Below are positions 4,598 through 42,633 of a stretch of 43,871 bases of DNA, in pieces; the stretch's first letter is position 1; each line of letters starts with the position of its first letter. This DNA comes from a virus (lineage: Duplodnaviria; Heunggongvirae; Uroviricota; Caudoviricetes). The stretch lies in the IMG/VR virus record IMGVR_UViG_2537561979_000006, one strand, 5' to 3'. Under the pieces are notes generated by a model. That model was not told where the DNA came from. It did not search any database and saw nothing but the letters and a program-made list of their open reading frames with translations. A program made the translations under genes and the position numbers.

Positions 4598-4916
4598 ACA
4601 GGCTCGTGAGGCTCTGGATGCCTGGATATGTCGACCAGGAATGACACAGGAGCAGTGGCGATGTATACAACTCCGGCTACGGGTTATTCCCCTCTGAACA
4701 GGCGCGTAAGGACTGGCAAAACGCCCGCAAAAAACTCTCGAGGGCAAAGGTGAAGAAACCTGCTGTGGTTGATCCGGACCTTATCTGGTCATCACCTGAC
4801 GGAGAAATACGTCGCTACGACAGTCGCCTAAACATAATCTGTCGCGAGTGCCGGAAGAGCGAAGTTATGCAGCGCATACTGGCTTTCTATCAGGGTAATT
4901 TTCAGGACGTGGCGCA

Positions 4917-5273
4917 GTGAGTGCACCGGCAACCATTCTTGATATGTGCTGTGGCAGCCGCATGTTCTGGTTCGATAAGTCTGACGAACGGGCGATATTC
5001 AGCGATATCAGAAAAGAAGGATACACATTACGCAATGGGAGACGCTTGATTATCAGCCCTGACATTATCGCAGATTTTCGTGCATTATCATTTGCAGACG
5101 CATCTTTTTCGATGGTTGTATTAGACCCTCCGCATCTTGAGAGTGTTGGTGATAACGCCTGGATGGGAAAGAAATATGGACGGCTGAATAAAGATGCCTG
5201 GCGTGATGATTCGCGACAGAGATTTAAAGAAGCCTTTCGGGTGTTGAGGCCGCACGGCGTTCTGATTTTTTAA
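4917..5273 (+). pseudogene. N-terminal fragment of a DNA (N6-adenine-type) methyltransferase
   Basis: 118-aa ORF with a DPPH motif (VVLDPPHLES, motif IV-like) and a Gly/Cys-rich SAM-motif-like segment (LDMCCGSRMFWFD), ending prematurely; followed by ~1 kb of fragmented reading frames. Confidence 0.4.
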
Positions 5274-6425
5274 TGGAATGAAACGCAAATACCGGTAAGC
5301 CAGATTCTGGCACTGACAGACAGAAAACCTGTTATCTGTCAACGAACAGGGAAAAAACGATAAAACCCACTGGATTATTTTTATGAAAGAGGCATCCAGT
5401 GAGTAGATTCGTAAGGCTACAGATACGTATATCTGAATAATTAAATTCAGTTCTGTAAATAAAATTTAATCCTTAACCGGATGGATTTCTGCACCCTCAG
5501 AACATCAGGAGGCCGCCCGAAAGGGCGGTAGTGAAATGCGAAAGTTCAAAATTATTATTGAAACGGGAATAGCTGGTGGAGATTTTGAGGATGTATTCGA
5601 AGTGGACGATGACGCAACACCTGAGGAAATTCATGACGGAGCATAAGAAATTTTCTTTAACTACTGCAATTACTCATACCACGAAATAAAAGACGATGAG
5701 GAAGAACAAAGTGGCTGATTTTTGTTCAGCTAAATATAACATCAGTTTTGAAGAGCGGGATGAACTATTAATGGACTATGGTGAGTTACGCGGTGGAAGT
5801 GCTGCTGATGTCGAATCCTAGCGTGATGACTATGAAGCGGGAAAAACTCCGGTCGAAGCATATTGTGATGAGTGGGGCGATGAATGAGCGAGATTAATTA
5901 TCAGGAAGGGCATGAAACGGCGGGGCAAGCAAAACCAGTGGCATGGCGATATCGCTACGTGAAAAAAGGCGTTACGGACTTTCAGGGGAAGTAGTGGTCT
6001 GGTGACTGGAAATATGTACCGAAAAAAGAGGATTGTAACGACAGGCCGAACTATCAAATTCAGGCCTTATTCACTGCCTCACCAGTCCCAGTTACATCAG
6101 AAGAACTGGTTAAAGCTGTGCACTTTTATGAACAACTAAAACGCGAAAATCCACCAACATCCGGCAACTAGATTAATGGATTAACTATGTCGGTTAAACG
6201 ACCAGCCAACTGAAAAAGCGGAAACCTGATTACAGGTTGCCAGATAAGGCAATGAGCTACCTGGCGCGGAACGGACTGATAAGTATGGGGAATGTTTTAC
6301 GATGAACCTTTAGACTAAAGAGTTTGTAACGCTATGTAAGTGATTTTTTCTGGTTTAGATATTTATATGTCCGGCCAAATTGAGGTGTGTTTAAATGTAA
6401 TTGCACATTGATTGTAGGAGGAATA

Positions 6426-6605
6426 ATGAAAAACGCATTGCAGTTTTTGTTTGTTGCGTTCTGGTTGTTCGCATCATGTATGCCCATCATCTTCACAGCA
6501 AGGTATATGGAAAAAGTTGATGTTTTGATATTAATATTTGGATATATAAATGCCCTTTTTTTAGGGGTGTTCATGGCGGTCATGTGCATTGAATACTGGC
6601 GGTAA
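6426..6605 (+). CDS. Small hydrophobic two-TM protein (59 aa)
   Basis: Strong RBS (TAGGAGGAATA) before the ATG at 6426; two hydrophobic stretches; AT-rich; function unknown. Confidence 0.45.
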   Translation: MKNALQFLFVAFWLFASCMPIIFTARYMEKVDVLILIFGYINALFLGVFMAVMCIEYWR

Positions 6606-6859
6606 ATACAGCGAACTCCATTGGTTTAGTTGGATATTTACTGTGCTGGACAAAAACGGTTTGCGGGGAAATCTTAGTTAAGTAGAATGACTGCGGGTGC
6701 TTGAGGCTATCTGCCTCGGGCATGGACACCAACGGCAGATAGAGAAAAGCCCCAGTTAACATTACGCGTCCTGCAAGACGCTTAACATTAATCTGAGGCC
6801 AATTTCATGCTAGACACATGTAGGTTAGCCTCTTACGTGCCGAAAGGCACGGAGAAGCA

Positions 6860-8300
6860 GGCTATTGTTAACACCAAGCTGTAATGTCCCCTTTGAACCA
6901 TTCTAAAATGTCCCCAGACAATTCTCTGGGGGATTTTTCATGATCAAAGAGACTGTTACGATGAGTCATAAGGAACTCCACCGACTTCAGATTATTCAGG
7001 AACAAGCTGCGGCACGCATTGGCATTTCTATTCGGCAGGTTAAACGTCTGGTGCAACGGTATAGAAATGAAGGGCCTTCTGGTCTGGTTTCCCACCGACG
7101 TGGAAAGCGTCCTAATAATTCCTTTTCTACTGAATTCAGAGCAACAGTAATTTCACTCCTCAAAGGCCGTTACGCTGATTTTGGACCTACGTTTGCGTGC
7201 GAAAAATTGCGCGAGATACACGGTTTATCTTTATCCGTTGAAACTCTCAGAAAGTGGATGATAGAAGAGGGGTTATGGCGTGAACGCCGTCGTAAAATTG
7301 CCCGTATATATCAACGCCGCATGCGACGACCATCTTACGGTGAACTGATCCAGATTGATGGCTCACCTCATGACTGGTTTGAAAATCGAGGCCCCAGATG
7401 TACACTGATCGTTTTCATTGATGATGCCACCAGTGCGTTGATGGCGTTGCGTTTTGTGCCTGCTGAAACAACCCGGGCTTACATGGAAACCCTCCGGGGT
7501 TACCTTAATGATCATGGCGTACCGCTCGCTCTCTACTCTGATAGACACAGTATATTCAGGGTAAATAACCCAGAGCGGGAAGGTGAGCTGACCCAGTTCA
7601 CTCGTGCGATAAAGACACTGGGCATCGAGCCAATCCATGCCAACAGCCCGCAGGCAAAAGGGCGGGTAGAGCGCGCCAATCAGACACTACAGGACAGGCT
7701 GGTCAAAGAAATGCGGCTTCAGAATATCAGTGATATTGAAACAGCAAATGCATGGTTGCCGACCTTTATTGAAGCCTATAACAACCGGTTCGCTACGTCG
7801 CCTCGTACTACTGATAATGCTCATCTTGATGTGCACCATTCTGAAGAGGAACTGGGTTATATCTTCAGCCTACAGGCGAAGCGCGTTCTGTCTAAAAATC
7901 TCACTTTCCAGTACAAAAGCAGTGCGTTTCAGGTACGCAGTGAGGGCCGGGGATATCGACTTAGGCATTCGGTTGTTACTGTATGCGAGAACTTTGACGG
8001 TGAAATTAACGTTCTGTATGACGGGAAAGCGCTGGGCTGGGAAAAGTATGTTGATGGCCCGGAGCCTATACCACTGGATGATGAAAAGAGTGTCCATGAA
8101 CGAGTGGATAATGCCCGTATTGATTTACGCTCAAAATACTATGTTAAACCTAAAGCTGACCATCCCTGGCTTACGCGCCGAACGCAAAGTCATCAGCAAG
8201 TTAAGCCCCCGAAGTTACCTAAAAAGAAGCCTGATCCCGATAAAAAAGATTGAAACCAAGATCGATTCGGTTGAGTGCATATCCATTCATAGGGTAGATT
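6860..8300 (+). mobile_element. Insertion sequence carrying the DDE transposase; boundaries approximate
   Basis: Single transposase gene interrupting the Qin-like region between the dicC side and flxA; terminal inverted repeats could not be resolved by eye. Confidence 0.4.
6940..8253 (+). CDS. DDE transposase (rve/integrase-core type; ISNCY/IS1202-group-like or IS481-like)
   Basis: 437-aa ORF with N-terminal HTH (IGISIRQVKRLVQRYRNEGPSGL), DDE-like residues in IQIDGSPHDW / LYSDRHSIF / ERANQTLQDRL, and a basic C-terminal tail. Family assignment is tentative. Confidence 0.75.
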   Translation: MIKETVTMSHKELHRLQIIQEQAAARIGISIRQVKRLVQRYRNEGPSGLVSHRRGKRPNNSFSTEFRATVISLLKGRYADFGPTFACEKLREIHGLSLSVETLRKWMIEEGLWRERRRKIARIYQRRMRRPSYGELIQIDGSPHDWFENRGPRCTLIVFIDDATSALMALRFVPAETTRAYMETLRGYLNDHGVPLALYSDRHSIFRVNNPEREGELTQFTRAIKTLGIEPIHANSPQAKGRVERANQTLQDRLVKEMRLQNISDIETANAWLPTFIEAYNNRFATSPRTTDNAHLDVHHSEEELGYIFSLQAKRVLSKNLTFQYKSSAFQVRSEGRGYRLRHSVVTVCENFDGEINVLYDGKALGWEKYVDGPEPIPLDDEKSVHERVDNARIDLRSKYYVKPKADHPWLTRRTQSHQQVKPPKLPKKKPDPDKKD

Positions 8301-8689
8301 CTTAAGTCGCGTTTCTGGTGTTCATTTTCGGGTGGTTTGTTACTTGTTTTACCGGGGATATGCCAGAAACGCGCTGAGTCAGTCTGGGCGGTGCGCGTAA
8401 TGAGGCGTTATGGTAAATAGCCTATGCTAATGTCCGCTAAGAGCAAGAAGCGGAAGTTGGCAGTTTTGTGGACTGTCCCCACAAAAGTGACTACAGAAAT
8501 AGTTGCAATTCATAATTGATCATGGGTTGTCAGTTAAACTCGTGGCGATTTAAATAGACTAATTGGGAGTGCGTCCATTACTTATATCTTGTAATGTTAA
8601 CTATCAGAAATGATACAAAGATAATATGTCTTTAAAGAAAAGGCTGATGGCGAAAAGTGGCCCGATGAGGGCCACAATACGGCTGTCAC

Positions 8690-9022
8690 TTAGACGTAAA
8701 TATCAATGGTGCCAGCGGTATTTGTATCGTCTTTTTTCTCTTCTTTTTTATCAGGCTGAACTGTCGCGTCTTCATTCTTTTTCTCTGCCTGCTGCCTTAA
8801 CAACTGCTCCAGTTGAGCCCAGAGGCTTTCAATTTGCTTCTGTACCAATGCAGCCATTTCTTTTTTCTGCTGTGTCGTCATCCCCTCTTCCGATGAGATT
8901 TTCCCAAGCTTTTCAGTCAGCACCTGAATTTGTCTTGTGATTTTGGCTATTTCTGATGTTCCTTCCGGGGCGGAGTTGTTTGAAATAACGGTTGAGGTAT
9001 TTCCCTGAATTGTGACAGACAT
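8690..9022 (-). CDS. flxA: FlxA-like protein
   Basis: 110-aa coiled-coil, lysine/glutamate-rich protein in the position flxA occupies next to ydfV/relB in Qin; preceded by a sigma-28-type promoter. Confidence 0.65.
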   Translation of the reverse strand: MSVTIQGNTSTVISNNSAPEGTSEIAKITRQIQVLTEKLGKISSEEGMTTQQKKEMAALVQKQIESLWAQLEQLLRQQAEKKNEDATVQPDKKEEKKDDTNTAGTIDIYV

Positions 9023-9045
9023 AGATTTCTCCTTTTAAAAAAGCA

Positions 9046-9072
9046 CTATCGGCATGCACAAAAAAATCTTTA
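9046..9072 (-). promoter_or_regulatory. Sigma-28 (FliA)-type promoter for flxA
   Basis: On the minus strand reads TAAAGATT-N11-GCCGATAG, against the consensus TAAAGTTT-N11-GCCGATAA, about 25-50 bp upstream of the flxA start. Confidence 0.6.
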
Positions 9073-9224
9073 ATCGTATTTCTTGTGTCATTAATTGTTT
9101 GATGTTCAGATTGTTTTCCTCGCGGGCTGGCGCGCCTCAGAAAGTAAAGCTTGTTGACAGGGGTAAACGTTCGGCAATAATTTTCTGCCGCATGCGGGTG
9201 TTGCATAAAACGTGTTACGTTCCT

Positions 9225-9530
9225 TTATCGACAGGTCAGGTCACCGCTCACCCGCCGACGAGAAAGCAACACTGACATGCTAAAGCAAAAAATAGATGAA
9301 TAAGTTGAGTTGTGCATATGTAGCCTGACCGTCACAAAGTATATGGTGTCTGTACCAGTAAGATGATGGCCGGACTCTTTAAAAACGAGCTGACCTGCAC
9401 AATACAGGATGGACTTAGCAATGGCTGCTCCTGGCACAAAGCGGACAGTGATCACCGTTCTTACGACTACTTTCTGACTTCCTTCGTGACTTGCCCTAAG
9501 CATGTTGTAGTGCGATACTTGTAATGACAT
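9225..9530 (-). CDS. YdfV-like hypothetical protein
   Basis: 101-aa ORF between flxA and relB, where ydfV sits in Qin; no recognisable domain. Confidence 0.4.
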   Translation of the reverse strand: MSLQVSHYNMLRASHEGSQKVVVRTVITVRFVPGAAIAKSILYCAGQLVFKESGHHLTGTDTIYFVTVRLHMHNSTYSSIFCFSMSVLLSRRRVSGDLTCR

Positions 9531-9545
9531 TTGTAATTACAAGAG
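9518..9545 (+). promoter_or_regulatory. relBE operator/promoter (relO-like TTGTAAT repeats)
   Basis: CTTGTAATgacaTTTGTAATTACAAG repeat/palindrome immediately upstream of the relB start. Confidence 0.55.
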
Positions 9546-9554
9546 GTGTAAGAC

Positions 9555-9794
9555 ATGGGTAGCATTAACCTGCGTATTGACGATGAACTTAAAGCGCGTT
9601 CTTACGCCGCGCTTGAAAAAATGGGTGTAACTCCTTCTGAAGCGCTTCGTCTCATGCTCGAGTATATCGCTGACAATGAACGCTTGCCGTTCAAACAGAC
9701 ACTCCTGAGTGATGAAGATGCTGAACTTGTGGAGATAGTGAAAGAACGGCTTCGTAATCCTAAGCCAGTACGTGTGACGCTGGATGAACTCTGA
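9555..9794 (+). CDS. relB: RelB antitoxin
   Basis: 79-aa ORF MGSINLRIDDELKARSYA...; ribbon-helix-helix antitoxin whose stop overlaps the relE start. Confidence 0.9.
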   Translation: MGSINLRIDDELKARSYAALEKMGVTPSEALRLMLEYIADNERLPFKQTLLSDEDAELVEIVKERLRNPKPVRVTLDEL

Positions 9795-10081
9795 TGGCGT
9801 ATTTTCTGGATTTTGACGAGCGGGCACTAAAGGAATGGCGAAAGCTGGGCTCGACGGTACGTGAACAGTTGAAAAAGAAGCTGGTTGAAGTACTTGAGTC
9901 ACCCCGGATTGAAGCAAACAAGCTCCGTGGTATGCCTGATTGTTACAAGATTAAGCTCCGGTCTTCAGGCTATCGCCTTGTATACCAGGTTATAGACGAG
10001 AAAGTTGTCGTTTTCGTGATTTCTGTTGGGAAAAGAGAACGCTCGGAAGTATATAGCGAGGCGGTCAAACGCATTCTCTGA
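9794..10081 (+). CDS. relE: RelE mRNA interferase toxin
   Basis: 95-aa ORF MAYFLDFDERALKEWRKL...YRLVYQVIDEKVVVFVISVGKRERSEVY. Confidence 0.9.
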   Translation: MAYFLDFDERALKEWRKLGSTVREQLKKKLVEVLESPRIEANKLRGMPDCYKIKLRSSGYRLVYQVIDEKVVVFVISVGKRERSEVYSEAVKRIL

Positions 10082-10152
10082 ACCAAAGCATGACATCTCT
10101 GTTTCGCACCGAAGGTGACACTTCTGCTTTGCGTTGACAGGAGAAGCAGGCT

Positions 10153-10308
10153 ATGAAGCAGCAAAAGGCGATGTTAATCGCCCTGATCGTCATCTGTTTA
10201 ACCGTCATAGTGACGGCACTGGTAACGAGGAAAGACCTCTGCGAGGTACGAATCCGAACCGGCCAGACGGAGGTCGCTGTCTTCACAGCTTACGAACCTG
10301 AGGAGTAA
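10153..10308 (+). CDS. hokD: HokD/RelF type I toxin (Hok family)
   Basis: 51 codons reading MKQQKAMLIALIVICLTVIVTALVTRKDLCEVRIRTGQTEVAVFTAYEPEE. This ORF is below the size cut-off of the six-frame track and was found by direct reading. Confidence 0.85.
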   Translation: MKQQKAMLIALIVICLTVIVTALVTRKDLCEVRIRTGQTEVAVFTAYEPEE

Positions 10309-10376
10309 GAGACCCGGCGGGGGAGAAATCCCTCGCCACCTCTGATGTGGCAGGCATCCTCAACGCACCCGCACTT

Positions 10377-10405
10377 AACCCGCTTCGGCGGGTTTTTGTT
10401 TTTAT
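10377..10405 (+). terminator. Rho-independent terminator downstream of hokD
   Basis: CCCGC-ttcg-GCGGG hairpin followed by TTTTTGTTTTT. Confidence 0.6.
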
Positions 10406-10476
10406 TTTCAACGCGTTTGAAGTTCTGGACGGTGCCGGAATAGAATCAAAAATACTTAAGTAGCGCGCAGGGATAA

Positions 10477-10752
10477 GAGGGATGGTCCCTTAAGGGTAAA
10501 GGGATTGTTCTGGATGAAAAAAGAACCCGGTTTCATGGCGTACCGGTATATAAGATTTGTGGGCGTTGTAATGGAAACCGGTTTAGTCGTTTACCGACCA
10601 CGCTGGCACGACGTCATGTCCAGAAGCTGGTACCAGACCTGACCGATTATCAGTGGTATAAGGGGTATGCGGACGTCATTGGTAAACTGGTAACAAAGTG
10701 CTGGCAGGAAGAAGCATACGCGGAAGCGCAATTGAGGAAGGTGACGAGATAA
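10477..10752 (+). pseudogene. 3' remnant of a Q-type late antiterminator gene
   Basis: In-frame stretch with no start codon encoding ...ICGRCNGNRFSRLPTTLARRHVQKLVPDLTDYQWYKGY... (zinc-binding CxxC plus a Q-like C-terminus); followed ~100 bp later by a tR'-like terminator. Confidence 0.45.
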
Positions 10753-10856
10753 ATGATTTTTGCTGAAGATGGCGACATGATGTTTGCATTTTTCAAAAAA
10801 TATGGATAAAATTTTTTCAACGATGGGCTTTGTATACCCGACGTTAAGAAAAAGTA

Positions 10857-10884
10857 GAAAACCCGCTGATGAGCGGGTTTTGTG
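10857..10884 (+). terminator. tR'-like rho-independent terminator
   Basis: AAACCCGCT-gatg-AGCGGGTTTTGTG. Confidence 0.55.
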
Positions 10885-11173
10885 CTTTAAATGGGGCAAT
10901 GGTAATGTTGAATCTCATCCCGGGACTCATGTCTGTTAACTTATTATTTAGCTGGTGACTTGGTTATTTGCCTGATGTTTAAAATGTTTTCTTCCAGTAC
11001 AATGTCCCTAAACACAATGAGTCTGCTTATTATATTATTAGCAGAGCTATTACGGCCAAAGTACAGCATAAGCTTTTAAAGCCAATCAACCAGTCATCAA
11101 GACAGACGGGGTTATTCATAAAAACTCTCCATGTGTGATCCGATGGGGCCTGAAATTAAAGCTTTAATATAGC

Positions 11174-11386
11174 TCATGAAAGGTAAACATTGGCAGCTGA
11201 AGGGCCACGCAGACCATTTATCCGGCAAAATTCCACGCGTAATCCGGTGGTAATTTCTTCTGCATCGCGGAGATTGAGCGCTGAAACATGAAGCTGGACA
11301 TCGATACGACCATCGGATGGGGTGATAAGACCCTTGCCGCTTTTGCCGTCAAAGGTTTTGACAATTCCTGTCATTTTACGGGACAA
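11174..11386 (-). CDS. cspF: Cold-shock-domain protein, CspF/CspH-like
   Basis: 70-aa CSD protein ([23 protein letters not shown]...) with degenerate RNP motifs, divergent from cspB. Confidence 0.8.
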
Positions 11387-11686
11387 AAAAATTCCTTAAT
11401 ACTGATAACTTGGCGCACTATACACACGTTCCTGAAGAAAGCTATAGTTTTTTGATGGGGTTGAAGATGGCTGGATGTCTAAAATAAACATTGCTTCATA
11501 TGTTCAACTATGCGTTAATGATTGCGTCGGTTTGAAGAACAGACGATATACGAAGTAGTTTACTAAAGCAGTTCTCATTTCAGGTGTTATTCACTTATTC
11601 CTTCTTTGAGTCTCTCCAATTAAGTACGAAGTCGTTTCTGTTATGCAAACCATTTATGCCGAAAGGCTCAAGTTAAGGAATGTAGA

Positions 11687-11902
11687 ATGTCAAATAAAAT
11701 GACTGGTTTAGTAAAATGGTTTAACGCTGATAAAGGTTTCGGCTTTATTTCTCCTGTTGATGGTAGTAAAGATGTGTTTGTGCATTTTTCTGCGATTCAG
11801 AATGATAATTATCGAACCTTATTTGAAGGTCAAAAGGTTACCTTCTCTATAGAGAGTGGTGCTAAAGGTCCTGCAGCAGCAAATGTCATCATTACTGATT
11901 AA
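11687..11902 (+). CDS. cspB: Cold-shock protein CspB-like
   Basis: 71-aa [26 protein letters not shown]...VFVHFSAIQ; long AT-rich 5' leader. Confidence 0.85.
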
Positions 11903-12183
11903 AATTCATCGCTCGTCTGTATACGATAACGAAGAAGGCTGATGCCTGAGTAGAGATACGGACAGAGTAGTGAATATTGGATCTCTTTAATAAAAAGTAA
12001 GGAGGTCCAATACATGAAACAATGGCTAGCATATTTGGCAAAATCTTAATCAGGAAAAGTATGCTAACCATTGTGGTGAAGTGCAGGTTTGCTGCATGAA
12101 TAGTTTTACAGCAGAAGCTAACTGCTGGCATGGCAAAACAAAGTGCGTAAGTGGATGACTCCCACAAAAAGCACCACAATCTC

Positions 12184-14211: not shown

Positions 14212-14573
14212 GGTAATATTAAATCGGAACATTTACATCGCGGAATGTAAAATTTAAATAAAAAGGACTCTTCCATGAGCCAAAATTCCTGAAATCTTAA
14301 GGGTAAGATAAAAGGTCTTAATCAGAATGACACGTTTTATTAATAAATAAAGCTATTCTTTCATTGCTGTGTTTTTCTTTACAAAAGTAATCCTTGCTAT
14401 GGGTGGTTAATCATGCGTTAATGGTGTTCTGGTTTGTTACAAATTTATCTGAAGCAGTCATTGTTATAATTTTATTATTTGTACCTCTTGAGATTTCCTT
14501 GTTGGTTTTTCTCTCTGATATTTTTTTTCGGACCATTCTGCCCAAGGGCTAATTTCTTCAAAAGGTAATAATT

Positions 14574-14786
14574 ATGTCTAACAAAATGACTGGTTTAGTG
14601 AAATGGTTTAACCCTGAAAAAGGTTTTGGTTTCATCACGCCGAAAGATGGCAGCAAAGATGTGTTTGTCCATTTCTCAGCAATTCAGAGCAACGATTTCA
14701 AAACATTAACTGAGAATCAGGAAGTTGAATTTGGTATTGAGAACGGACCTAAAGGTCCTGCCGCTGTTCATGTAGTGGCGCTTTGA
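14574..14786 (+). CDS. cspI: Cold-shock protein CspI-like
   Basis: 70-aa [26 protein letters not shown]...; long AT-rich leader. Confidence 0.85.
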
Positions 14787-14990
14787 GGTAGACAATATTA
14801 CAAACCATATTCACTTTAGATGCCCGTGTTGTCATGGTTCCCAGTATAGAACATCATCTTTTGATGTTTCTGACATGAATCCTTTCGGGGCAAAATGTAT
14901 CTTTTGTAAATCAATGATGATTACATTTGATAATATTTCACAATACTTAAATGCCAGCCGTCTGTCGTTGGATTTAAAAAAGTGAAAATG

Positions 14991-42058: not shown

Positions 42059-42633
42059 TGGCATTCAGAATGAGTGAACAACCACGGACCATAAAAATTT
42101 ATAATCTGCTGGCCGGAACTAATGAATTTATTGGTGAAGGTGATGCATATATTCCGCCTCATACAGGTCTGCCAGCAAACAGTACCGATATTGCACCGCC
42201 AGATATTCCGGCTGGCTTCGTGGCTGTTTTCAACAGTGATGAGTCATCGTGGCATCTCGTTGAAGATCATCGGGGTAAAACGGTTTATGACGTGGCTTCC
42301 GGCGACGCGTTATTTATTTCTGAACTCGGTCCGTTACCGGAAAATGTTACCTGGTTATCGCCGGAAGGGGAGTTTCAGAAGTGGAACGGCACAGCCTGGG
42401 TGAAGGATACGGAAGCAGAAAAACTGTTCCGGATCCGGGAGGCGGAAGAAACAAAAAACAACCTGATGCAGGTAGCCAGTGAGCATATTGCGCCGCTTCA
42501 GGATGCTGCAGATCTGGAAATTGCAACGGAGGAAGAAATCTCGTTGCTGGAAGCATGGAAAAAGTATCGGGTATTGCTGAACCGTGTTGATACGTCAACT
42601 GCACAGGATATTGAATGGCCAGCACTGCCGTAG
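42058..42633 (+). CDS. tfa: Tail fibre assembly protein (Tfa)
   Basis: 191 aa; conserved Tfa C-terminus ([33 protein letters not shown]); its start overlaps the stf stop (TAATG). Confidence 0.8.

Follow-up and report, generated by a model that had tools for sequence, protein, structure and literature searches.

The relBE-hokD tandem of a Qin-type prophage as the probable scar of an IS1202-family insertion into a hok/sok locus

Introduction

The relBE-hokD region of a 43,871-nucleotide stretch of Caudoviricetes DNA (IMG/VR virus record IMGVR_UViG_2537561979_000006; the whole stretch is called the window in the following) contains the toxin-antitoxin (TA) operon relBE and, downstream of it, the toxin gene hokD. 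Its closest described relative is the relBEF operon in the Qin prophage of Escherichia coli K-12. At that identical locus RelB2 and RelB2E repress the promoter PrelBE at the operator relO, with RelE acting as co-repressor or de-repressor according to the RelE:RelB ratio. For the identical K-12 sequence the toxicity of RelE and its neutralisation by RelB were established experimentally (PMC2812701, PMC3507626), and relO was mapped as four hexads reaching from about −10 to +17 around the transcription start (PMC2812701). A passage in PMC5120126, which refers to Gotfredsen & Gerdes (1998), states that co-transcription of relBEF was also shown for this sequence. Passages in further papers describe hokD as lacking the canonical hok/sok components through rearrangement (PMC12214031 and PMC7232551, citing Pedersen & Gerdes 1999) and trace the shortening of an ancestral open reading frame (ORF) from about 70 to 51 codons to the integration of relBE (PMC6379469, citing Ramisetty & Santhosh 2016). 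The rearrangement and the shortening reported there are the same as seen here; a transposase, inverted repeats, a target duplication, a surviving sok half or recurrent hok targeting are not mentioned in these passages.

A second point of reference are intact hok/sok loci, namely chromosomal hokC-mokC-sokC, the locus of plasmid R1 and two hokD-type loci of other lambdoid prophages, designated here L005 and L006. They share with the window the Hok ORF, its ribosome-binding site (RBS), the 3′ untranslated region (UTR) with an fbi-like box and the terminator. In the intact loci a 157-nt leader with sok and the start of mok adjoins hok, whereas the window has this leader at a distance of 3.27 kb upstream and an interrupted mok frame.

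The third is the IS1202 family (ISNCY group) of insertion sequences (IS), which the element described below resembles in its transposase of about 440 amino acids, with an N-terminal helix-turn-helix (HTH) and a DDE domain with Q at position E+7, and in its TGT...ACA ends. The Q at E+7 is a signature of the family, the TGT/ACA ends are accompanied by a second, inner transposase-binding site, and the subgroups produce target duplications of 5–6, 15–17 or 27–28 bp (PMC10132070). The unusually long duplication of 15–17 bp in the ISTde1 subgroup resembles the one found here. Transporter forms with cargo are known, and the ISAba32/ISAjo2 subgroup inserts site- and orientation-specifically 5 bp from XerC sites (dif). 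While the published IS1202 cargo consists of 'hypothetical proteins' only, the element of the window has a well-studied TA operon fixed at its right end and a variable middle, and its apparent target is the RBS-to-ATG region of hok instead of dif.

We propose that the tandem arrangement of relBE and hokD is very probably the scar of a relBE-carrying transporter IS that inserted into a hok/sok locus and split hokD from its leader. On balance, we also favour the view that relBE is cargo fixed at the right end of IS1202-family transporters that form a group not recognised before and would home site- and orientation-specifically to the junction between RBS and ATG of hok/sok loci on plasmids and prophages, a protein-based addiction module thereby displacing an RNA-based one. 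The relBE and hokD genes, their co-transcription and the rearrangement of hokD by relBE integration are already published. In our partial coverage of the literature, where a prior description is possible, we found none of the IS1202-family vehicle with its ends and duplication, of the surviving sok half, of relBE as a fixed right-end module or of precise, recurrent hok targeting.

Results and discussion

A hok/sok locus probably split by an inserted element

Coordinates refer to the window, and features are on the plus strand unless a minus strand is indicated. The relBE operon lies within a transporter IS of the IS1202 family (ISEsa1-like) of 3,274 bp (6866–10139), which carries flxA, ydfV and relBE as cargo. 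The element is flanked by an exact 15-bp direct repeat, GGAGAAGCAGGCTAT, the left copy of which is located at 6851–6865 and the right copy at 10140–10154. The right copy includes the RBS of hokD (GGAG) and extends two bases into its ATG. This 15-mer is present as a single copy in the uninterrupted loci L005 and L006, which on this comparison can be taken as empty sites. The left inverted repeat (IRL, 6866–6895) starts with TGTTAAC; the right one (IRR, 10110–10139) ends with GCGTTGACA (...GTTGACA), 58 nt past the stop codon of relE. The two form TGT...ACA inverted repeats with 22 of 30 matching positions (binomial P(≥22/30) about 4 × 10⁻⁸ for one fixed pairing of ends, uncorrected for the choice of ends). 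A motif containing ATGTCCCC occurs in direct repeats after the start of IRL (6873–6891 and 6897–6915).

Upstream of the element, positions 6675–6865 are the 5′ half of the split hokD locus. By BLAST this segment is 97.4% identical to L005 2826–3016, the leader of an intact sok-mok-hokD locus, and it comprises a tac-like 5′ end (6695–6706), the Sok-complementary region, the start of mok, the hok RBS and the left copy of the duplication. The Rfam sok model RF01794, which covers the 157-nt hok leader holding both the Sok target and the sok gene, scores 104.1 bits (gathering score 59) at 6695–6866, and this is the only sok match in the whole window. The truncated mok ORF (6807–6884) begins with the ATG at 6807, runs into the IS and stops within IRL at 6884. 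The leader ends with ...GGCACGGAGAAGCAGGCTAT|TGTTAACACC, and the hokD half starts with ...GCGTTGACA|GGAGAAGCAGGCTATGAAG. The base directly 5′ of the left duplication, position 6850, is C (GGCAC|GGAG) in the window and in the Shigella locus L022, and A (GGCAA|GGAG) in empty hokD sites; by analogy to intact loci it would fall into the −35 region of the antisense Sok promoter.

The corresponding parts are missing next to hokD. No match to RF01794 at E ≤ 1 was obtained in 8500–11500, while the positive controls scored 118 bits (K-12 hokC) and 117 and 104 bits (hokD-type loci of other prophages). Loci of this hok subfamily encode Mok as Hok with additional N-terminal residues, read in the same frame; mokC and hokC end at one shared stop codon, and L005 contains a 70-codon in-frame mok-hok ORF, MLDTCRLASYVPEGKEKQA-MKQQ... 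In the window this frame is closed by an in-frame TGA (10135–10137), supplied by IRR, five codons before the ATG of hokD. Alignment to intact loci revealed that homology starts at 10139/10140, 13 nt before the hokD ATG, with a sharp breakpoint at AGGAGAAGCAGGCTATG. In megablast searches, matches of the hokD region to thousands of E. coli genomes begin only at 10139, with 98–99% identity, and positions 10139–10496 are 99.4% identical to L005.

According to the insertion model, the starting point would be a lambdoid prophage of the Qin type with an ordinary hok/sok locus consisting of promoter, tac, mok, sok, hokD, fbi and terminator. An IS1202-family element of 3.3 kb, with IRL, transposase gene, flxA, ydfV, PrelBE/relO, relB, relE and IRR, would then have transposed into this locus and landed between the hok RBS and the start codon, with duplication of 15 bp (GGAGAAGCAGGCTAT). 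As the outcome, hokD keeps RBS, ATG, fbi and terminator, and its promoter, mok start and sok are now 3.27 kb away. On plasmids or prophages, the insertion might disarm an addiction module under RNA control that was already resident there and install a protein-based one, and landing in hok/sok might provide the element with a safe site on mobile replicons.

The ends, the duplication and the empty sites define a concrete vehicle by which one of the most thoroughly studied chromosomal TA systems could move horizontally; previous discussion of how such modules move offered no mechanism. One addiction system would here insert into another and dismantle it at a precise nucleotide. The window, unlike K-12, retains the left end of the element, a nearly complete transposase ORF and the severed sok/mok leader (6675–8068). 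K-12 has additionally lost a segment that corresponds to window positions 4656–8068, including the sok leader and the left end, by deletion, and keeps ydfW, the last 49 codons of the transposase. This deletion would account for the lack of any sign in K-12 that the classic relBEF operon derives from a transposon.

Recurrent insertion at hok loci

A search of species-representative genomes with the intact transposase as query yielded 67 related loci. By means of the end sequences 17 further enterobacterial copies were bounded, the size of the element in Enterobacteriaceae ranging from 2.4 to 7.3 kb. An exact duplication of 13–16 bp flanks 14 of these 17 copies; the direct repeat is 10 bp in L027, 4 bp in L071 and 1 bp in L078.

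At least eight divergent hok loci hold the element between RBS and ATG, each with its own 13–16-bp duplication. The window and L022 share the duplication GGAGAAGCAGGCTAT with HokD encoded downstream. In L007 the duplicated sequence is TGGAGGGGCTATGAT and the downstream Hok protein begins with MMPQRTFL..., in L008, L009, L010 and L012 it is GGAGAAGAAGGCCA(TG) and Hok begins with MKLPRNTL..., and in the L013 group GGAGAAGAAGGCCAT precedes a Hok protein beginning with MKMPNQP... Further duplications are GGAGAAGAAGCCATG (L016 and L028), GATATGCTGACAAA (L019, with a downstream Hok beginning with MLTKYALV...) and GATGTTAGCCATG (L030). Hok-type left flanks were likewise found in L021, L027 and L044, and the Rfam sok leader abuts IRL in L007, L010, L016, L019 and L030. 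Furthermore, 71 of the 77 occurrences of the right end in IMG/VR are at the hokD site, the others being one pnd-like site, two deletions into hokD and three cases with a flank too short to read.

Between these loci the modules of the element are 88–100% identical and the hok flanks only 50–83%. For example, L013 and L019 are 100% identical in the first 1,500 and the last 700 bp of the element, with 53% and 51% identity in the flanks. Since the element is far more alike than the hok flanks, these cases represent independent insertions and not one inherited event. The orientation is constant with the exception of L026, where the hok side is inverted. Inspection by eye showed GGCA[A/T/C] directly 5′ of the duplication in about 15 of 19 enterobacterial sites, three non-hok sites included. 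From this distribution the element would be site- and orientation-specific, with the transposase recognising the conserved 3′ end of the hok leader (...GCC..GGCAA directly 5′ of the duplication). If so, the origin of the relBEF operon would be explained, and the IS1202 family may have, beside the dif targeting of the ISAba32 subgroup, a second target specificity.

The distribution might also arise if the transposon is real and is found at hok through survivorship or because recombination between hok loci spread it, without true recognition of a target. Insertions that silence a toxin would be tolerated or even favoured, hok loci are repeated and could recombine, some copies reside at non-hok sites, and related plain insertion sequences occupy varied sites. 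Nevertheless, we regard this possibility as unlikely. The insertion point is constant within ±1 nt (15–17 nt after GGCA) and the orientation is the same, with hok leaders that are only 50–65% identical, whereas selection for hok inactivation would accept many positions. In addition, three non-hok sites (L015, L023 and L043) share GGCA[A/T] directly 5′ of the duplication, and at each locus both copies of the duplication fit the local flank, which is contrary to what is expected for chimeric recombinants.

Several points weigh against insertion with hok targeting as we favour it. Targeting is deduced from the distribution of insertion sites, and in about five of the 19 enterobacterial cases (L015, L023, L042, L071 and L078) no hok locus can be recognised at the site, so that the target specificity is not absolute. 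The adaptive story of one addiction module replacing another is speculation. HokD may be translated from the relBE transcript and Sok RNA may still be made from 6757–6815 (minus strand), and the RNA fold described below is a prediction. Finally, ISEsa1 is listed in ISfinder with 1,609 bp and no detectable target duplication, and it was reported to have no target preference (PMC10132070); in two surveys of the IS1202 family no target was identified for subgroups whose duplications are long or missing.

Boundaries and composition of the element

The ISEsa1 record bears on the question of which unit is mobile. Across the bounded enterobacterial elements a left module of about 1.61 kb (1,606–1,620 bp) and a right module of about 0.71 kb (about 710 bp), consisting of relBE and IRR, are conserved. 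The middle is variable and contains a cation-efflux transporter with cytochrome b561, a LysR regulator with TauE, DMT exporters or secondary IS110/IS30 insertions. By tblastn relB-relE was detected in the right module of 13 of 14 bounded enterobacterial elements, L043 being the one without it. The left module is close in length to the 1,609 bp of ISEsa1, and with highly variable cargo between the modules one could assume that the mobile unit is the 1.6-kb ISEsa1 proper and that relBE and the other cargo were moved by one-ended transposition with a surrogate right end, as in ISEcp1. This is quite unlikely, since an internal IRR was searched for after the transposase gene (about 1.4–1.8 kb) and the best candidate matched at 11 of 22 positions, which is background, whereas the outer end matches at 16 of 22 (22 of 30 over the full repeat). 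Moreover, the same relBE-IRR module closes 13 of the 14 variants tested, and surrogate ends would differ between events. As the published 1,609 bp equal the length of the left module and no right end is found there, the ISfinder boundary, compared here by its published description, may be the place where conservation stops. The record of no duplication might be explained if the true right end lies beyond relBE, and a correction of the ISEsa1 entry is possible.

The transposase ORF (6940–8253) is open and encodes 437 amino acids. It matches the NCBIfam model NF033594 (transpos_ISNCY_2) with 456 bits (cutoff 250) and the Pfam domains HTH_32/29/28 in its N-terminal part and rve_3 (integrase core), and a Q is located seven residues after the catalytic E (...GRVERANQTLQ...). 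A DDE transposase within 400–500 amino acids with an N-terminal HTH, imperfect TGT/ACA repeats, a subgroup-typical duplication and evidence of mobility place the element in the IS1202 family. In annotations by the Prokaryotic Genome Annotation Pipeline (PGAP) the intact homologue is designated 'IS1202-like element ISEsa1 family transposase'; the equivalent gene of strain FORC_082 is split by PGAP into 'partial transposase' and 'ydfW'. Compared to intact copies of 446 amino acids, the transposase of the window has an in-frame deletion of nine amino acids (QESINRHIT) in the first N-terminal HTH, and because of this loss the copy in the window is probably immobile. A terminator-like hairpin followed by a T run (6911–6932) is located just upstream of the transposase ATG and may shield the gene from read-through from the hok promoter.

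Two cargo genes lie on the minus strand between transposase gene and relBE. The flxA gene (8690–9022, minus strand; Pfam FlxA, 2e-14) is absent from the other cargo variants. The ydfV ORF (9225–9530, minus strand) has no family match. Among other cargo variants conservation is limited to about its first 20 codons, a stretch that overlaps with the promoter region of relBE. It may be no genuine conserved gene.

Elements with 99.2–99.8% identity were found on 16 plasmid records with at least 80% of the element, from Salmonella, Enterobacter and E. coli. The copies examined are carried by an IncI plasmid from Salmonella and by IncFIB/IncFII plasmids from Enterobacter. In Hahella, relatives whose transposase is 62% identical are plain insertion sequences of 1,449 bp with 15–17-bp duplications in ten of ten copies, at unrelated sites. 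This suggests that the duplication length is a property of the transposase clade, and relBE cargo and the preference for hok would be properties of the enterobacterial lineage.

Some junctions are unusual. In L011 (2212–2228) IRR, a 15-bp spacer and IRL follow each other head to tail. In L027 (7554–7565) a second, different IS1202-like left end is found 10 bp past IRR, and in L026 (5927) IRL abuts a hok gene in inverted orientation. In L108, a type represented by two IMG/VR contigs, IRR is fused into the interior of hokD with an adjacent deletion. These junctions suggest repeated activity at a hotspot.

The relBE module

The relB and relE genes, the 51-codon hok ORF and the terminator of the preliminary description were all recovered, and the alignment to K-12 that it had proposed gave 100% identity to MG1655 over 9300–10494. 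This stretch contains promoter and relO, relB, relE, a 71-nt spacer, hokD and the terminator, and the upstream flxA-ydfV arrangement is also the same in K-12. The Qin-type identity holds as well, the context being 99.9–100% identical to segments of K-12 Qin. As first described, the feature is already known biology and only confirms a prophage of the Qin type. The junction of relE and hokD is present in 1166 of 5426 complete E. coli genomes.

The antitoxin and autorepressor gene relB (9555–9794) encodes 79 amino acids (Pfam RelB, 1e-32) and relE (9794–10081), encoding the ribosome-dependent mRNA interferase, 95 amino acids (Pfam ParE_toxin, 2e-13); both are 100% identical to K-12. RelB scores 133 bits with the NCBIfam equivalog model NF008412 (cutoff 96) and RelE 54.7 bits with TIGR02385, RelE_StbE (cutoff 27.9). 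The stop codon of relB (9792–9794) and the ATG of relE (9794) overlap by 1 nt, giving a bicistronic operon with the antitoxin gene first. With a ribbon-helix-helix antitoxin of the RelB/DinJ type and a toxin of the RelE/ParE fold, relBE and its operator form a complete type II module identical to that of K-12.

The TTGTAAT repeats upstream of relB, which the preliminary description had taken as operator repeats, lie at 9519 and 9531, with an inverted copy at 9536–9542. This heptamer is not enriched across the window (10 seen, 5.9 expected). The block is nevertheless the published operator, since the 24 bp of TTGTAATGACAT plus TTGTAATTACAA are the exact letters of the experimentally mapped relO (PMC2812701), and it is this identity, not heptamer enrichment, on which the assignment of relO is based. 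The operator (9519–9542) consists of TTGTAATGACAT, a pseudo-palindromic half-site, and the perfect palindrome TTGTAATTACAA and contains four [A/T]TGT[A/C]A hexads.

A candidate relBE promoter (9491–9519) was identified by eye, with the −35 element TTGCCC (9491–9496), a TG motif (9511–9512) and the −10 element GATACT (9514–9519). It fits eight of 12 consensus positions plus the TG motif, and its position appears to agree with the span of relO from −10 to +17 (PMC2812701). A promoter scan called neither PrelBE nor an antisense promoter in 9200–10700 and nothing in 6550–7000; this carries little weight because the threshold of the scanner (9 of 12) was too strict for PrelBE (8 of 12 plus TG). The module would be expected to work as in K-12, RelB2 and RelB2E binding the four relO hexads and repressing the promoter, and loss of RelB freeing RelE, which would lead to mRNA cleavage on the ribosome.

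hokD as an orphaned toxin gene

The Hok-family membrane toxin ORF hokD (relF; 10153–10308) encodes 51 amino acids and matches Pfam HOK_GEF with 1e-23 (82.9 bits). Intact sok-hokD loci encode the identical protein, and L005 has it annotated under the same accession, WP_000813254.1. Codon 47 is TAC within TTACGAA (10289–10294). The gene is located 71 nt downstream of relE, and no terminator was detected within this spacer by a terminator scan. An fbi-like element, CCTCAACGCACCC (10358–10370), read from the sequence, is complementary to GGGTGCTTGAGG at the 5′ end of the leader (6695–6706). The tac-like and fbi-like elements are thus complementary, but are placed on opposite sides of the 3.27-kb insertion; both assignments presuppose the known architecture of hok mRNAs and are putative. 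An intrinsic terminator follows at 10377–10404. Its hairpin (10377–10394, a 7-bp stem with five G-C pairs, then a T run) is the sole terminator-like site in 9200–10700 and is identical in hok loci without relBE. The terminator therefore appears to be the native 3′ end of the hok locus and not a feature of relBE.

Thus hokD is a toxin ORF with RBS, 3′ UTR and terminator, and it lacks a promoter, mok and sok of its own. Because it lies 71 nt past relE with no terminator between, and because its own promoter, mok start and sok are 3.27 kb off, it seems to be a passive third cistron of the relBE transcript. In K-12, work on relBE, including its deletion, inevitably affects how hokD, a gene devoid of its own control region, is expressed. 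For the RNA of 10060–10400 a fold with z = −2.8 was predicted, with base pairing between the region around the hokD start and the 3′ part of the coding sequence; it suggests the closed conformation of the family and is not decisive.

Two candidates in this region were rejected. The ORF 10134–10301 (TTG start, 55 amino acids), considered as an out-of-frame mok, has no family match and is irrelevant as mok because in this subfamily mok is in frame with hok. Rfam matches to isrK (10317–10398; 25 bits, gathering score 50) and rsmX (20 bits) in 10293–10398 are sub-threshold, fall into the hok 3′ UTR and are probably driven by the terminator hairpin. The weak isrK-like match precedes the gene of a Q antiterminator, as isrK itself does.

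The preliminary description had taken relBE and hokD as tandem type II and type I modules that are preserved as independent survivors while the surrounding phage genes decay. Two intact, independent modules (relBE and hok/sok), kept by selection amid prophage decay, would be in line with the intact toxin ORFs, the identity of HokD to the protein of intact loci and the decay around the locus (the deletion at 10491–10496 and the truncated Q gene). The type II half of this reading stands, since relBE is complete. The type I half fails: the proposed search for mok and sok at hokD was negative, with no sok or mok adjoining the gene although the positive controls score, and with the mok frame closed by the TGA. 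The sok leader is found 3.3 kb away, beyond an insertion with inverted repeats and target duplication, and hokD inactivation by rearrangement is also stated in the published passages (PMC12214031, PMC7232551). The survival of two independent modules is therefore very unlikely; instead, relBE is cargo of the element that split hok/sok, with the severed half at 6675–6865. That illegitimate or homologous recombination brought relBE in, as it would a moron or a piece of a plasmid, the repeats being coincidental, would suit passages that name only an 'integration of relBE acquired from plasmids' without a vehicle (PMC6379469) or treat promoter plus TA ORFs as the mobile unit (PMC5120126), but it is extremely unlikely given an exact 15-mer that flanks 22/30 inverted repeats beside an IS1202-family transposase, the recurrence of this structure with other duplicated sequences at more than 12 other sites and the existence of uninterrupted empty sites with a single 15-mer.

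Neighbouring prophage regions

Just past the hokD terminator (10491–10496) the window lacks a 2.18-kb segment that is present in K-12, with a microhomology of about 5–6 bp (TAAGGG) at the junction. The missing segment comprises rem, a hypothetical ORF, ydfU (DUF968) and, of the Q antiterminator gene ydfT/quuQ, the 5′ two-thirds. This deletion leaves the Q gene of the window without its N-terminus. Compared to the otherwise 99.9% identical FORC_082, about 1.59 kb of a dicC/ydaT-like region is also absent (4653–4655 in the window, L002 3766–5355). Further Rfam matches above gathering are two cspA-type thermoregulator 5′ UTRs at 11526–11918 and 14428–14813, which belong to cspB and cspI in the Qin region, and, near the right end of the window, an IS009 RNA at 42401–42599.

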